Source: Shigella phage TB004. From it: a stretch of 64,000 bases of DNA. Numbering within the stretch: position 1 is the first letter of the stretch; every line of letters starts with the position of its first letter. A model generated the notes under the pieces. The model was not told where the DNA came from, made no database searches, and saw only the letters and a list, made by a program, of their open reading frames with translations. The stretch lies in the sequence record MW822011. One strand, given 5' to 3'. The position numbers were made by a program, and so were the translations under genes. Positions 24,147 to 31,297 of this stretch are shown here, piece by piece.

Positions 24147-24200
24147 ATTTCTTATGGTACTATACAACTATCAACTACTGATACAGATTTGGAGAATAAA

Positions 24201-25169
24201 ATGAAAACTGTAACTATCAATAAGGGTATCTACTTCGGTAAAGAAATCTCTGGAACTTTTGAGCTCTTAGGCGAATGGTTCCCAGATAATGCTCCGGTAG
24301 ATGCACAAGGAGATGGTAAAGTTTTTGTTGAAATTGACGGTAAACGTCGCGGTGTTTGGGTTTACAAATCAGATATTTCATATGATGGTGTAAAAGTTGA
24401 AGAAGTTAAAGAATCGTATGAAGATATGAAAATCCGCATTAATAAAAGATTTAATGTTATGGGAATGATGACGAATGGTATTATTAACGGAAATATTCGT
24501 TCATTAATTATCTCTGGCGCAGCAGGTATTGGTAAAACGTATTCTTTAGATAAAGCTTTAAATAAAGCAAATGATAATGAATACATTGAATATAAAAGCA
24601 TTAATGGTAAAATCTCTGGTATTGGTCTTTATGAGCAGCTTTGGAATAATCGTGAAGAGAATTCTGTCCTTTTGATTGATGATGTGGATGTTTTCTCTGA
24701 TATGGACATTCTTAATCTTCTAAAAGCTGCTCTGGACACTGGAGAGACCCGTAAAGTCTGCTGGAGCACTGCATCTTCTTACTTAGAAGAAAAAGGCATT
24801 GACCGTGAGTTTGAATTTAAAGGAACGATTGTTTTTATCACAAACGTTGACATTGACCGCGAATTAGACCGTGGTACTAAACTTGCCCCACACTTACAAG
24901 CATTAGTGTCCCGCTCGGTTTATTTGGATTTGGGTGTTCACACTAATGAAGAAATTATGGTCAGGGTTGAAGATGTTATTCTTTCAACTGACATGATGCA
25001 AAAGCGCGGTCTTTCTGATGAAGAAACTTATAAAGCATTATCATGGATGAAAGTTAATGTTAATCGTTTACGTAATGTTTCACTGCGTACTGCACTTTAT
25101 CTTGCTGACTTTATTATGACCGACAAAAACCATTGGGAAGAAATTGCTGAAACGGTATTATTAAAATGA
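24201..25169 (+). CDS. AAA+/P-loop ATPase
   Basis: Walker A GAAGIGKT and Walker B LLIDDVD; 322 aa. Confidence 0.55.
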   Translation: MKTVTINKGIYFGKEISGTFELLGEWFPDNAPVDAQGDGKVFVEIDGKRRGVWVYKSDISYDGVKVEEVKESYEDMKIRINKRFNVMGMMTNGIINGNIRSLIISGAAGIGKTYSLDKALNKANDNEYIEYKSINGKISGIGLYEQLWNNREENSVLLIDDVDVFSDMDILNLLKAALDTGETRKVCWSTASSYLEEKGIDREFEFKGTIVFITNVDIDRELDRGTKLAPHLQALVSRSVYLDLGVHTNEEIMVRVEDVILSTDMMQKRGLSDEETYKALSWMKVNVNRLRNVSLRTALYLADFIMTDKNHWEEIAETVLLK

Positions 25170-25885
25170 AAAAATATTTTACTATCTATAAAACTGAAAT
25201 ATTAAATTTAAAGACAGGTATTAAGAAATACTATTATGGTCGACATATAACTAATAACATCAATGATTCGTATGTTGGTAGTGGAAATTATATAGAACGT
25301 GTAAAAGTGTCAAATAACCACATATTATCAAAAACGGTTTTAGAAGTTTTTGATAATTATGATAAAATGGTACAAGCTGAAATATTATATATCATGGCAG
25401 GTAAATTGAAATATGGAAAAAACTGTGTTAACCTGTCATACGGGGGTGAAGGAGGAAAGGTTGCAGATGAAACTAGGATAAAATGCAAAAAGCATTCTAT
25501 AAATTTATGGAAAAATCCTAATCATATACAGCATATGAAGAAAAAGATGAAAGAGGTCACATCCACGCCGGAAGCTAAATTAAACACTTCAATAAAAACT
25601 TCGCAACGATATAAGGACCCAGTTTTTGTTAGAAAAGTTAGTAATATTATTAAAAAGAAACTAAGCAATCCTGTAGTAAAAGAAAAGCATATTAATGGAA
25701 TTAAAGCTGCAAAGCGTTCTCATTTAACTATATGGCAGTATGAAGATGAATTATTCGAGCTTTGGAAAGAAACTAAATATGGATGGAGAAAATTTACAAA
25801 GGAAGCTATAAAACACGGGTATCCAAATGAACCGTATCGTAGTATGGTATCAACTTTTCAGAAAAGACATTTAGAAGAATCCTAA
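25166..25885 (+). mobile_element. GIY-YIG (Seg-like) free-standing homing endonuclease gene
   Basis: N-terminal GIY-YIG-like motif (TIYK...YYYG...YVGSG) and Lys-rich NUMOD-like repeats. Confidence 0.55.
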
Positions 25886-26858: not shown

Positions 26859-26913
26859 CCGCTTTATACCAAGGATGGTATAATGGTTCTAAGCCCTTTT
26901 AATTGAGATTATT

Positions 26914-27321
26914 ATGAAACAGTTGATAATTAAAAGATTGAATTTATTGATATGTTGTTTATGTGTAGTAGTTGCATACGGTTATTACGCAATTAATGAT
27001 TATATGCATTATAAAGATTATGATGTTACTGTAGTTAATACCATTACAGGAACACAAGGAAAAGGGTCTAGTTTATCGTTTATTGCCGTATATGAACTCA
27101 AAGACGGTTATAGATTTAGTGAATATATTTCCCCAGAGATGTATTCTTCAATAGAAAAAGGTGATAATATTACTGTAAGTTTACGTCCTTTCGACGTAAA
27201 ACAGACACTGTTTGATAATATTGTTTGGTTCTTTGGAATGGTATTAGTTCAATCTGTGCGTGGTGCTTATGTAGTCTGTTCAATCATATTCTGTGTATTT
27301 AGCAAAATTGAAATTGAGTGA
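26914..27321 (+). CDS. membrane protein
   Basis: 135 aa, N- and C-terminal TM segments. Confidence 0.45.
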   Translation: MKQLIIKRLNLLICCLCVVVAYGYYAINDYMHYKDYDVTVVNTITGTQGKGSSLSFIAVYELKDGYRFSEYISPEMYSSIEKGDNITVSLRPFDVKQTLFDNIVWFFGMVLVQSVRGAYVVCSIIFCVFSKIEIE

Positions 27322-27328
27322 GGAAAAT

Positions 27329-28219
27329 ATGTCAGTAGTAATTAATAATGTCAATGCAGTAATTAAATCTTTAGTTAATAAAAAAATGATGAATGAATGG
27401 ACTGTATTTCGCAGTGCAGAGCCAGATAAATTTTTTCATAGATTTAACCCAACTTTGGATTTGAATGTTATCGACAAAGATGTTCATGCAGAAATTTTAG
27501 ATAAGTTTAAAGTTGATATTGGATTTGGATTAGAAAAACATCTACAGCGAACAAATGGGTCTGGAATGAGTTTATCTAATCGCATTATGAAAGCCCTTAA
27601 TAAAATTGGAGCGTTGTCTCGTATTAATGCGAGTGAAATTCTTCGTAATTATAATAAAGGATATGACCTTTATGGTCGACTAATGCCAAAATTATCATTC
27701 GATCAAATGATTGCGGATTTGTGGGAAAATCAACGACGATTATTAGCATTGGGCGCTCGATTAGCTAAAGGTCTAGATAAACAAATGATTTTTAAGACCA
27801 ATAACACAGAAGACCTTAAATGCTTTAAATTTAGTATTCGTGGAGATGATTATTACATCAGAGCTCACTCTACAGATTATGTTAATATGGGGCATCATCT
27901 CTGTTTAGCTTTTGAAGTTTTAAAAGAAGCTGGAACATTAGAATATTCATCTGGTGCAAAATGCCCTATTGGTTCAAGTTGTATTTTAATTTATCGCCCG
28001 AATGAATCCAGTTCAACTACATTGCCTACAAAACCTGTACCAGTTCGTAGTAACGAAAAACATTCTGAACAAATTGATTATTTTAATAAACAGATTGAAG
28101 AGCTGAATATTTCTATTCAACAATATGATGATGAAATTTTCAGACTATCTGGATTGAGTAGTAAAGCTAAATCTGAGCGTGAAAAGTTAATTAAAATTGT
28201 TGATTTACTTAAATCTTAA
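27329..28219 (+). CDS. tandem paralog 1, C-terminal coiled coil
   Basis: 296 aa; GAGGA RBS. Confidence 0.5.
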   Translation: MSVVINNVNAVIKSLVNKKMMNEWTVFRSAEPDKFFHRFNPTLDLNVIDKDVHAEILDKFKVDIGFGLEKHLQRTNGSGMSLSNRIMKALNKIGALSRINASEILRNYNKGYDLYGRLMPKLSFDQMIADLWENQRRLLALGARLAKGLDKQMIFKTNNTEDLKCFKFSIRGDDYYIRAHSTDYVNMGHHLCLAFEVLKEAGTLEYSSGAKCPIGSSCILIYRPNESSSTTLPTKPVPVRSNEKHSEQIDYFNKQIEELNISIQQYDDEIFRLSGLSSKAKSEREKLIKIVDLLKS

Positions 28220-28227
28220 GGAACACC

Positions 28228-29256
28228 ATGAAAACTCGTTCTCAAATTGAAGATATGGTTCGTAATGCCAGCTATACTCGTGATGTTATGACATTTTTAT
28301 GTGAAAATAATTTAGACCCTGATAAAGTTAATCGTGTTATTCATCACTTTAAGTATACGAATAGCAGTGAATGGATGCGTAATTTTAGTAAAGCGGGGTA
28401 TATTACACAAATGACTGCTCGTGAGCAGCTCACCGATTTCTGTAAAACTATTGATTATAAAAATCCTCTATTTGTTCAAGGCGTTGGTCAAAGTAAGGTC
28501 GATTTATCATCTGGATTTTTCAATCCAAATCATTATCGTATTGAATGGAGATTTATTGCTCTGTTCCGTAGACAATTAAAGCAAATTTTATCAACTGCGA
28601 GTCGATTAAAAGGTTCTGATATTAACTTAAAGAATCTGAAATTTGATGGTTATACTCTTCAGATGGAAGTAAGACCATTAAAAGAAAATAATAGAACTGC
28701 ACGAATTAGCTTTAAACCTAACACAAAAAATTCTCTTTCAATTTGCGAGTGCCTTAAATCGCAGTTGACAGAAGCATTTAAGTATATGGACGTTGTTGCC
28801 GCTGTTCAGTCTAAGATTTTACCTCGTTTTGAGCGATTTAAATTAGACACAACAACATATGAACTTGATATGATCGTTTCATTTAAATACGATTTTTTGA
28901 GAAAGGACGAAGTCCCACAAGAGAAAAAGCAAGAAGTACAAGATAACTTAAATTTAAATTTATCCAATTACTCATCAAACGATCCTAAATTTTGGATGTA
29001 TAGGTCAAGCAATATAGATGCATGTAAACTTAATAAAGTGAGTTTTCTTCCTACTGAAAATTCAAATTTTAAACCTGTAGAAAAATGGCACGCTGACGCG
29101 ATTGAGAAGTCTCTTAAGGCAGTAGATGATGAACTCGTTAAAGCGACCAATGAAGTGCTAGAAGCTGAAAAGGTGTTAGAACAAGCTCAGTCAAGGGTTC
29201 AAAATCTGACAAAGCAACGTTCTAAACTGAACAATGCACTAAATGCACTGAACTAG
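28228..29256 (+). CDS. tandem paralog 2, C-terminal coiled coil
   Basis: 342 aa; N-terminus MKTR as in paralog 4. Confidence 0.5.
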   Translation: MKTRSQIEDMVRNASYTRDVMTFLCENNLDPDKVNRVIHHFKYTNSSEWMRNFSKAGYITQMTAREQLTDFCKTIDYKNPLFVQGVGQSKVDLSSGFFNPNHYRIEWRFIALFRRQLKQILSTASRLKGSDINLKNLKFDGYTLQMEVRPLKENNRTARISFKPNTKNSLSICECLKSQLTEAFKYMDVVAAVQSKILPRFERFKLDTTTYELDMIVSFKYDFLRKDEVPQEKKQEVQDNLNLNLSNYSSNDPKFWMYRSSNIDACKLNKVSFLPTENSNFKPVEKWHADAIEKSLKAVDDELVKATNEVLEAEKVLEQAQSRVQNLTKQRSKLNNALNALN

Positions 29257-29313
29257 TTTACTTTGCCACAAGGATGTGGTATAATGTTCTTACTTTCTAC
29301 TGAGGAGATTAAT

Positions 29314-30315
29314 ATGACTCGTAACGAATATATCAAATCATTCAATAGTGTTATTGATGATAAAGCTATACCGATGTTTGGTCAAAATAGCGTTATTTCT
29401 ATTATCAATCAATGGCTCAATAGTGTTGATGCAGGTATTGTTTCTTCTACTAAATTTATTCATGAAATTCGTAAAATTTCTAGTCGTGTAGATAAAGATG
29501 TTATCAAGAAAACCTTTAAAGAGTCTCGTCTTCTTTCATATTTGGTTAATCGTGATATTCTTGGTAATTTTGGGAAAGAAATTAAACGAACCAAAGATGT
29601 AGTAGGATATAATTGGTTCGGTGATGTTAATTCTTATCATCTTAATAATAAAGAAGACCCTGAGAATATTTTTACTCGTCGTTGGATTAGTAATTTCAGA
29701 CTTTTCAAAGGACAGATTCTAAAATCAGCTTCTAAATTATGTTATGGCGATTATCGTCAAATTCATCCCTTAGCTGATGATATGATTATCATAAAAGAAT
29801 ATGAACTTGATAAAAATAAAGTATCTATTTTTGTGAATTATGGATTTTTTACACCAGAAACTAACCAAAAGAACATTAATAAATTTTTCTCAATTGCTAG
29901 CACTATAACTCGTCAATTAGAAACCGCATTACTTTGTATGGAAACAGTAGAAAATATTCATACGTATCCTTTTAAGAATATATGCGGTTGGGAAGGATAT
30001 AAAATTGTAGTTAGTCTTCGTGAAGTGAAATGTGCGTACTCACCGACTGATAAAGAAATTTACCAACAAAAATGTGATGAAATTGTGAATACTCCTAAAG
30101 AAGAAATTACACTTGAGGAACTAATGGATAATCTTGATGATTCGCCTGAACCTGTAGAAATTCGTCCAGAAGTTATTGCACTAGAAAAGGCTTATAAAGA
30201 AGTTCTAGAAATTTCTAATAAAGCGCAGAAAGAATATGAGCAGGCTAAAAGGATTTGGGAAGAATCTGTTAATCGCCTGGATCGTCTTGAACAAGCTTTA
30301 CAGTTAATTAAGTAA
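29314..30315 (+). CDS. tandem paralog 3, C-terminal coiled coil
   Basis: 333 aa; own early promoter GTTTAC...TATAAT; SRLLSYLVNRDILGNF shared with paralog 4. Confidence 0.5.
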   Translation: MTRNEYIKSFNSVIDDKAIPMFGQNSVISIINQWLNSVDAGIVSSTKFIHEIRKISSRVDKDVIKKTFKESRLLSYLVNRDILGNFGKEIKRTKDVVGYNWFGDVNSYHLNNKEDPENIFTRRWISNFRLFKGQILKSASKLCYGDYRQIHPLADDMIIIKEYELDKNKVSIFVNYGFFTPETNQKNINKFFSIASTITRQLETALLCMETVENIHTYPFKNICGWEGYKIVVSLREVKCAYSPTDKEIYQQKCDEIVNTPKEEITLEELMDNLDDSPEPVEIRPEVIALEKAYKEVLEISNKAQKEYEQAKRIWEESVNRLDRLEQALQLIK

Positions 30316-30367
30316 TTTAAAGCCAAGGATGGCTCGGAGTATAAATCATTAACCAAGTGAGAAGAAC

Positions 30368-31297
30368 ATGAAAACTCGTAAACATTATATTGATTATTTT
30401 GACAGTCTTATTACTAAACACCGCAATTATCAGATCGGACACAGAGCAGTAATCAATAATATTCTTCGTGATTTCCTTCAATATGTTGGCCAGGAAAATC
30501 ATATCTGTAAAGATACTCAAAACGCTTATTCTCATTCGTTAGGTAATTTGCTCGAATGGTTTAAACGTTCTCGTTTATTATCTTCTACTGTGGCTCGCGA
30601 TAACATTAAAAACTTTATGAAGCCAAGCTTCATTAAAACTACGACATCTATAACCGATTTGGTTGAATTTACTATTGTTAACGATGTTAAAAAGACCCAT
30701 TTGGCTGATTGGTTATCTACCATTCCTGAAACTAAATTTGCTGATAAATTTGCTTGTCAATTCAATACCCAAGTGAATATGCTTTTTAAGCATGCTCGCA
30801 AACTATTTACCGCGGGCGATGACCGTACAAATACAGTTCATGTTAAGGATTGGGTTATTGCTGATGAAGTAACACACAAGCCAGGTGGTTCATCAGTGTT
30901 AATTAATATCCAGGTTCCTTATTATTACTCACGTAATCTCGGCACCATGACAGCTAAAGAAATTAATAAGCACAACAAAACTATTCGTTCGTTGTCTTAT
31001 AAACTTCGCATGATGTTAAAAATTATGGACGTAGTGGAAATGTATGACGAAATCGAAGATAATGGTTCAATGTTATACAGTTCACGCATTCTAATCAAAC
31101 TGAAGAACCTTAATGCATATAAGACAGTTGTAAAAGAGCCTAAAGTAGAAAAGGTTGATAACCTGAGCGAAGAACGTGAATATCTCAATGCTCGCTTAAT
31201 TGAAGTTGAAGCTCAGATTGCCGAACACACTAAATTGTTAAAAGCTCTTAATGCAAAAGCAAATGGTTTACGTAATGCTATTGAGGTATTGAAATGA
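30368..31297 (+). CDS. tandem paralog 4, C-terminal coiled coil
   Basis: 309 aa; SRLLSSTVARDNIKNF. Confidence 0.5.
   Translation: MKTRKHYIDYFDSLITKHRNYQIGHRAVINNILRDFLQYVGQENHICKDTQNAYSHSLGNLLEWFKRSRLLSSTVARDNIKNFMKPSFIKTTTSITDLVEFTIVNDVKKTHLADWLSTIPETKFADKFACQFNTQVNMLFKHARKLFTAGDDRTNTVHVKDWVIADEVTHKPGGSSVLINIQVPYYYSRNLGTMTAKEINKHNKTIRSLSYKLRMMLKIMDVVEMYDEIEDNGSMLYSSRILIKLKNLNAYKTVVKEPKVEKVDNLSEEREYLNARLIEVEAQIAEHTKLLKALNAKANGLRNAIEVLK

Follow-up and report, generated by a model that had tools for sequence, protein, structure and literature searches.

The window analyzed here, the whole stretch of 64,000 nucleotides from Shigella phage TB004 (sequence record MW822011), derives from a Tequatrovirus and contains an array of four consecutive open reading frames (ORFs) at positions 27329-31297, as had been proposed in an earlier examination of the DNA letters without database searches (the sequence-only reading). 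All four lie on the + strand, and a Shine-Dalgarno sequence is located 6-9 nt 5' of each ORF. The encoded proteins, referred to as p1 to p4, are homologues of T4 NrdC.6, NrdC.5, NrdC.4, and NrdC.3, respectively, and the array is flanked by homologues of the T4 nrdC thioredoxin, endonuclease VII, and nrdD genes. Matches to the 3,969 bp of the array were found in 656 phage records, with phage KIT06 at the top (97.3%). Our analyses support that the four genes are true and very old tandem paralogs, which form one superfamily specific to T4-like phages (Straboviridae and relatives), and that they probably serve the phage against host immune proteins. The genes and their main features are as follows.

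27329-28219, + strand: p1, NrdC.6 homologue, 296 aa, 97% identity to T4 NrdC.6 over aa 1-259
28061-28216, + strand: intact heptad helix of p1, aa ~245-296
28228-29256, + strand: p2, NrdC.5 homologue, 342 aa, 94.4% identity to T4 NrdC.5 over 342 aa
29074-29253, + strand: canonical coiled-coil tail of p2, aa 283-342
29314-30315, + strand: p3, NrdC.4 homologue, 333 aa, 96% identity to T4 NrdC.4
29509-29568, + strand: conserved motif FKESRLLSYLVNRDILGNFG of p3, aa 66-85
30166-30309, + strand: tail helix of p3 in the AlphaFold2 (AF2) model, aa 285-332
30368-31297, + strand: p4, NrdC.3 homologue, 309 aa, divergent allele with 61% identity to T4 NrdC.3
31160-31294, + strand: tail of p4, aa ~265-309

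The high identity of p2 to its T4 counterpart, together with the same place between nrdC.6 and nrdC.4, identifies it as the ortholog of nrdC.5. It was the only one of the four proteins with a Pfam match, to the DUF7235 model (PF23882), which it covered at full length (395.9 bits at a cut-off of 30, E = 1.8e-118, model positions 1-307/307), and no match to this model was obtained for p1, p3, or p4. A newer Pfam release (precomputed annotation) lists three separate families, PF26899 for p1, PF23882 for p2, and PF26897 for p3. The PHROGs database likewise distinguishes phrog_2257 (p1; E = 9.2e-152, model positions 1-303/303), phrog_2351 (p2), and phrog_1435, which was matched at full length by both p3 (E = 5.1e-168) and p4 (E = 1.3e-115); all three carry an unknown-function label. 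Searches of the four proteins against NCBIfam and Pfam retrieved no enzyme family and otherwise yielded only sub-threshold chance matches (PHL, integrase SAM-like domain, PgrA). Among these, the N-terminal helical bundle of p4 (aa 30-85, positions 30455-30622) showed a weak resemblance to tyrosine recombinases, namely to their N-terminal SAM-like domain (E = 0.001 in NCBIfam and 0.07 in Pfam), which is probably due to chance. No further member of the family beyond p1-p4 was detected by a hidden Markov model (HMM) search over the 64-kb window. The nearby gene nrdC.8 (175 aa, helical C-terminus) was considered as a fifth, truncated member, which was not supported (P ≥ 0.06).

In pairwise BLAST comparisons, only p3 and p4 were significantly similar (28% identity over 231 aa, E = 2.5e-9), and the other five of the six pairs were non-significant. 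First-pass profiles, which contained close homologues only, gave P values of 0.03-0.2 for all pairs except nrdC.3/nrdC.4. HMMs of the tails alone produced no significant match across families (best E = 0.016, for a profile that included a bridging protein). These results would fit four unrelated genes that share nothing but a convergent C-terminal coiled coil caused by compositional bias. However, cores located outside the tail were connected in colinear fashion once the profiles had been enriched with the orthologs from Mosigvirus NBG1 and Dhakavirus C6, bridging proteins, and distant matches from 1.84 billion representative proteins. The nrdC.3 and nrdC.4 families aligned with P = 1e-14. In hhalign comparisons, nrdC.5 aligned to the joint nrdC.4/3 profile with P = 4e-9 (1.7e-6 without the bridging protein P0233) over 142 columns, which correspond to p2 residues 51-197 and p3 residues 66-219, and nrdC.6 aligned to the nrdC.4/3 profile with P = 3.3e-4 (7e-3 without P0233; p1 residues 51-169 to p3 residues 29-163). 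The direct link between nrdC.6 and nrdC.5 reached only P = 6.6e-3 (p1 residues 86-146 to p2 residues 49-128). Reversed-profile controls remained negative (P = 0.17-0.87). Based on this evidence and the structure search described below, the unrelated-genes explanation is already largely refuted, and we regard it as highly improbable. When the nrdC.4/3 profile HMM was itself run against the 1.84 billion representative proteins, only ten matches were retrieved, none of which was cellular and none of which was an nrdC.5 or nrdC.6 protein.

All profile alignments fell on the motif F-K-x-S-R-L-L-S-x-x-V-x-R-D-x-L-x-x-F, which reads LNKIGALSRINASEILRNY in p1 and FSKAGYITQMTAREQLTDF in p2, and also shared a helix with the pattern L-x-x-A-[SA]-[RK]-L-x-x-G-D; the alignment of nrdC.5 with nrdC.4/3 additionally included a helix Q-L-x-x-A-L-x-x-M-D-x-V. 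The block SRLLSYLVNRDILGNF / SRLLSSTVARDNIKNF (SRLLS..V.RD.L.NF), which the sequence-only reading had noted in p3 and p4, is present in both proteins, as is the MKTR start that it had pointed out in p2 and p4. The N-terminus of p3 is MTRN, and distant relatives begin with MTR or MITR. In the joint alignment, the families remain colinear between the M(K)TR start and a C-terminal [KR]-L-x-x-A-[IL]-x-x-L-K pattern.

Two single-copy proteins bridge all four families in both their cores and their tails, as judged from profile matches. Klebsiella phage Marfa gp080 gave a full-length match to the nrdC.4/3 profile (5e-11) and also matched the tail of nrdC.5 (1.5e-7). For Enterobacter phage IME523 QEA10564, matches were obtained to the tails of nrdC.6 (1.4e-6) and nrdC.5 (1.5e-4) and to the core of nrdC.4/3 (1.6e-3). 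Both bridging proteins are similar to each other (E = 8.5e-13), and their genes lie directly 5' of an nrdC.2 homologue in the respective genomes. Since the tail-only HMMs gave no cross-matches, homology of the tails is established through these bridging proteins and not by direct comparison. A Foldseek search with the p3 model against BFVD returned full-length, probability-1.0 matches to uncharacterized proteins of 300-370 aa from many different Straboviridae, with T4-like phages of Pectobacterium, Acinetobacter, Enterobacter, Klebsiella, Erwinia, Serratia, and Yersinia as sources. JS10 NrdC.6 was among these matches (probability 1.00, E = 5e-5), which provides independent support for the membership of nrdC.6 and joins the families at the level of predicted structure. 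Taken together, the joint alignment, the profiles, the bridges, and the structure match, with colinear similarity among the families outside low-complexity regions, indicate that the NrdC.3-6 proteins constitute one old superfamily. The paralogy that the sequence-only reading had suspected is thus supported, and the similarity extends beyond the coiled coil into the core.

Seven in-phase heptads form the very C-terminal end of all four proteins, in agreement with the common architecture and heptad-repeat tail that had been read from the DNA. Their last 49 residues follow one continuous register, in which 86-93% of the residues at a/d and 10-19% of those at b/c/f are hydrophobic. The heptad scores were 0.67 for p1, 0.83 for p2, 0.76 for p3, and 0.71 for p4, compared with a 99th percentile of 0.62 and a 99.9th percentile of 0.71 among 12,531 background segments of the remaining + strand ORFs. 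With seven heptads, exceeding the four that we required together with hydrophobic a/d positions in a helix, and with the long helix in the AF2 models, the tails qualify as coiled coils, and they may drive oligomerization. The earlier description of a variable N-domain joined to a conserved coiled coil holds for the architecture; it does not hold for the sequence signal, which is strongest in the helical core (approximately residues 50-200) and not in the tail. Conservation within the families likewise peaks in the core (residues 60-180 of p2 and 80-160 of p1). Hence, the tail is conserved as a structure, and the core helices carry the strongest sequence signal.

According to AF2, p2 and p3 each end in a single helix of 48-59 residues that follows a disordered linker. 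In the p3 model, which was confident (pLDDT 81, pTM 0.67), residues 1-84 form a helical bundle at the N-terminus. The alpha/beta core comprises strands at 88-110 and 158-174, helices at 119-148, a long helix at 185-208, and a hairpin at 212-235, and it is followed by the linker (~259-284) and the terminal helix (285-332). For p2, a shallow alignment yielded a poor model (pLDDT 43), which was left out of the fold searches; the elements of this model occur in the same order as in p3, and its helix 283-341 was modeled at pLDDT 80-91. The layout predicted for the superfamily starts with a helical bundle, continues with an alpha/beta core that is built around three conserved helices and with a disordered, often acidic linker, and ends in a coiled-coil helix of ~50 residues. 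Foldseek against the PDB gave no match at E ≤ 1e-3, and the sequences of p1-p4 have no relative in the PDB. The lack of an enzyme family and of a PDB fold, combined with the linker and coiled-coil layout, argues for binding proteins rather than catalysts.

The intergenic regions of the array contain small elements that resemble the promoter-early stem-loop (PeSL) of T4-type phages, for which the consensus TTTACW-N17-TAYWAT has been derived from phages PST and T4 (Comeau 2014, PMC4122927). Three such elements were found.

29257-29285, + strand: PeSL, TTTACT-17-TATAAT, directly after the p2 stop codon
30316-30345, + strand: decayed PeSL-like element between p3 and p4, TTTAAA-18-TATAAA, with the stem GCCA/AGGA/TGGC at 30322-30333
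~26860-26885, + strand: PeSL relic between nrdC.8 and nrdC.7, with the stem ACCA/TGGT

The first of these is the early promoter that had been proposed 5' of p3, and it was recovered by a promoter scan with an extended TG. Its spacer forms a stem-loop composed of CCACA (29266-29270), AGGA, and TGTGG (29275-29279), and with consensus hexamers, a spacer stem-loop, and a position in the hyperplastic region it has all hallmarks of a PeSL. The element is identical in T4, and elements of the same type also follow the nrdC.5 homologue in NBG1 and C6, where the stems carry compensatory changes (AACCA/TGGTT and ATCCA/TGGAT). The promoter scan skipped the element at 30316-30345 because the final base of its -10 hexamer is A. 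The loop reads AGGA in all three inter-gene elements, and compensatory variation of the stems is seen between copies and between phages. The motif CAAGGATG occurs in the window at these three + strand sites alone, plus at one unrelated site on the - strand.

Homologues of nrdC.6, nrdC.5, nrdC.4, and nrdC.3 were found in 741, 530, 553, and 653 phage records, respectively. Three gene orders were observed, which are 6-5-[PeSL]-4-[PeSL']-3 in Tequatrovirus, 6-5-[PeSL]-3 in Mosigvirus, and 6-5-[PeSL]-4 in Dhakavirus. In Mosigvirus NBG1 the array consists of nrdC.6-like, nrdC.5-like, and nrdC.3-like genes, and in Dhakavirus C6 of an nrdC.6-like gene, a 67-aa membrane ORF, and nrdC.5-like and nrdC.4-like genes. 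Marfavirus and Kanagawavirus carry a single copy 5' of the nrdC.2 homologue. In the coliphage genera, the superfamily has grown from a single copy to three or four. The three gene orders with PeSLs at their junctions are the pattern expected of PeSL-mediated cassette exchange, and the comparison of gene orders suggests that recombination took place at the p2/p3 and p3/p4 elements. In Acinetobacter phage Acj61, tandem copies suggested by the consecutive accessions E5E4A1/E5E4A2 were not found within the 22 kb examined. The same phage carries adjacent genes for a nicotinamide phosphoribosyltransferase and a ribose-phosphate pyrophosphokinase (L006 1229-3938), which are enzymes of an NAD+ reconstitution route and represent a different counter to NAD+-depleting defenses.

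Individual members of the array have been altered repeatedly. Phages T2 and vB_EcoM_G8 carry nrdC.4 as two or three separate pieces, and BFVD accordingly holds fragments of 155 and 158 aa. In the T4 reference genome (NC_000866), nrdC.6 has a 1-nt deletion (gagctg-atattt versus gagctgaatattt in the window, ~28105), which causes a frameshift to 275 aa and the loss of the coiled-coil tail; the DNA further 3' is otherwise identical. The gene appears intact in another T4 record (MZ375356), and the deletion stems either from mutation of a lab strain or from an old error in sequencing. A protein of 299 aa (P0119) is a natural chimera, in which a segment of nrdC.5 (~aa 146-268) is joined at a short common FN..VN stretch to nrdC.3, which is present from ~aa 137 up to its C-terminus; nrdC.4 has been deleted. 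NrdC.6 of Shigella phage Sf25 (P0121, 378 aa) contains an internal tandem duplication of 82 aa, and the nrdC.4 locus of this phage measures 1,248 nt compared to 999 nt; the extra length of both genes may reflect real duplication or an assembly artefact.

In comparison with T4, the dN/dS ratios (nonsynonymous to synonymous substitution rates) of the array were 0.06 for nrdC.6, 0.16 for nrdC.5, 0.13 for nrdC.4, and 0.30 for nrdC.3, indicating purifying selection overall. The family is indeed diversified, as had been proposed, by old nrdC.3 alleles and by gain and loss of cassettes, and not by pervasive positive selection. The p4 gene goes back to an old allele swap (dS ~1). Relative to T4 NrdC.3, both ends of p4 are conserved (82-88% identity in aa 1-80 and 83% in the tail), residues 81-280 are the most divergent, and identity drops to 30% in aa 161-200, where dN ~ dS. 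Over the 653 phage records, the nrdC.3 identities fall into discrete classes of ~92-98%, 74-78%, and 60% with almost nothing in between, and the 74-78% class corresponds to the Mosigvirus copy.

A function has been published for the T4 ortholog of p2. A T4 deletion clone was no longer able to plate on Escherichia coli strain ECOR17, plating was restored by deletion of the host gene dsr1, and cloned dsr1 protected strain MG1655 from the deletion clone (Srikant, Guegler & Laub, eLife 2022, PMC9391042). Plasmid-borne T4 nrdC.5 restored plating of the deletion clone on MG1655 carrying the ECOR17 dsr1 (PMC9391042). Dsr1 is a SIR2 NADase defense protein that is thought to deplete NAD+ (PMC9391042). 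Its tetratricopeptide repeat (TPR) sensor is shared with Avs7, and a phage major capsid protein, a late protein, is reported to be its trigger (2026 preprint, PMC12803255). Literature searches on nrdC.3, nrdC.6, DUF7235, follow-up work on anti-Dsr1 activity, and the NrdC.5 mechanism yielded, within the library searched, nothing beyond the study of Srikant et al. 2022. The published counteraction of Dsr1 by nrdC.5 lends support to the guess of the sequence-only reading that the array serves host interaction or anti-defense, and at 94% identity p2 would be expected to have the same anti-Dsr1 function.

We consider it probable that the array encodes early accessory, oligomeric, and non-enzymatic inhibitors of host immune proteins and is remodelled at PeSL cassettes. 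The proteins would be expressed early in infection and would likely neutralize host immune proteins by binding directly, without catalysis, to a sensor or effector of the host. The variable beta-sheet face may determine target specificity, and the coiled coil may confer oligomerization and avidity. As the trigger of Dsr1 is a late capsid protein, an inhibitor made early would be in place first, and NrdC.5 might bind Dsr1 before the capsid protein arrives. The other three paralogs may be aimed at other defense proteins or at other sensor variants, and recombination at the inter-gene PeSL cassettes could have expanded and contracted the array. A more far-reaching version of this scenario, which we put forward as speculative and rather doubtful, is a modular immune-evasion toolkit, in which the conserved helical scaffold and coiled-coil tail display a hypervariable beta-sheet face, each paralog or nrdC.3 allele class neutralizes a different TPR-sensor defense protein (Dsr1/Avs7 clade) or another system, and PeSL exchange swaps specificities between lineages, resembling antigenic-variation loci.

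The rescue from Dsr1 could also be explained in other ways. The proteins might be host-takeover factors that bind a housekeeping machine such as RNA polymerase or a protease, with the rescue being an indirect consequence, for example of a changed timing or amount of the trigger; we judge this explanation to be unlikely. The proteins might also be decoys, made early and mimicking a virion component (for instance with a tail-terminator-like fold), that occupy or desensitize sensors of structural proteins, which appears improbable. Finally, the proteins could act as enzymes, either by offsetting NAD+ depletion or by modifying a metabolite, as in the NARP pathways, rather than by binding a defense protein. 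This would be compatible with the presumed NAD+ depletion by Dsr1 (PMC9391042), with the known ability of phages to rebuild NAD+, and with the location of the array among genes of nucleotide metabolism (nrdC, nrdD); the family and fold searches described above argue against catalysis, and we consider an enzymatic role very improbable.

Several observations weigh against direct-acting inhibitors built on one shared fold. The functional data cover nrdC.5 only, and they were obtained with the T4 ortholog rather than with the p2 allele, while binding by NrdC.5 and its mechanism are our proposal. Oligomerization through the tail is predicted from the heptads. As the p2 model was poor, the shared fold of p2 depends on the profile alignment and the order of secondary structure elements, and at the sequence level the nrdC.6 link to the other families is weak when the bridging protein is left out. 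Furthermore, the dN/dS values against T4 contain no gene-wide signal of positive selection.

Two neighboring genes deserve mention. The nrdC.7 homologue (26914-27321), a small predicted membrane protein directly 5' of the array, is the least constrained neighbor in comparison with T4 (88% aa identity, dN/dS 0.47). A 239-aa ORF at 25166-25885, which is situated between an nrdC.10-like AAA protein (24189-25169) and an nrdC.9-like ORF, looks like a mobile insertion of the homing-endonuclease type.

The genes of the array and one of their functions were already known; new are the link into one superfamily and three untried counter-defense candidates with natural specificity variants. Because T4 nrdC.5 disarms Dsr1 and the four genes are paralogous, the dispensable T4 genes nrdC.3, nrdC.4, and nrdC.6 become good candidates for immune evasion and counter-defense. 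Single-copy relatives of the array occur across phages of Klebsiella, Enterobacter, Edwardsiella, and Pectobacterium. Dsr1 itself is among the least understood defense sirtuins. The variable beta-sheet region and the coiled coil are the parts to mutate, and the nrdC.3 allele classes (~95%, 76%, and 60%) offer a natural specificity series for mapping the co-evolution of inhibitor and target. In phage therapy, the presence or absence of the array genes may predict the host range of T4-like phages.

Among the known systems, T4 NrdC.5 (DUF7235, PF23882; PMC9391042) is the closest to p2, which shares its genomic position and differs in length by no more than 2 aa; the amino acid differences between the two cluster in the linker. 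T4 NrdC.3, NrdC.4, and NrdC.6 are uncharacterized, and p4, p3, and p1 are their positional homologues with 61%, 96%, and 97% identity, respectively. p4 belongs to a different allele class than T4 NrdC.3, and p1 retains the coiled-coil tail that is missing from the T4 reference sequence of NrdC.6. A functional analogue is DSAD1, the inhibitor of DSR2 from an SPbeta-like phage, which binds this defense-associated sirtuin, a better-studied relative of Dsr1, directly and competes with the structural protein that acts as trigger; comparison of p1-p4 with DSAD1 revealed no similarity in sequence or fold. The p2/p3 element resembles the PeSL cassettes of T4-type phages (Arbiol 2010, PMC2839356; Comeau 2014, PMC4122927) in that it is located in the hyperplastic region beside genes that differ among phages, whereas the copy between p3 and p4 is degenerate. 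In Pfam and PHROGs, nrdC.6, nrdC.5, and nrdC.4/3 appear as three separate families, which our analysis unites in one superfamily.

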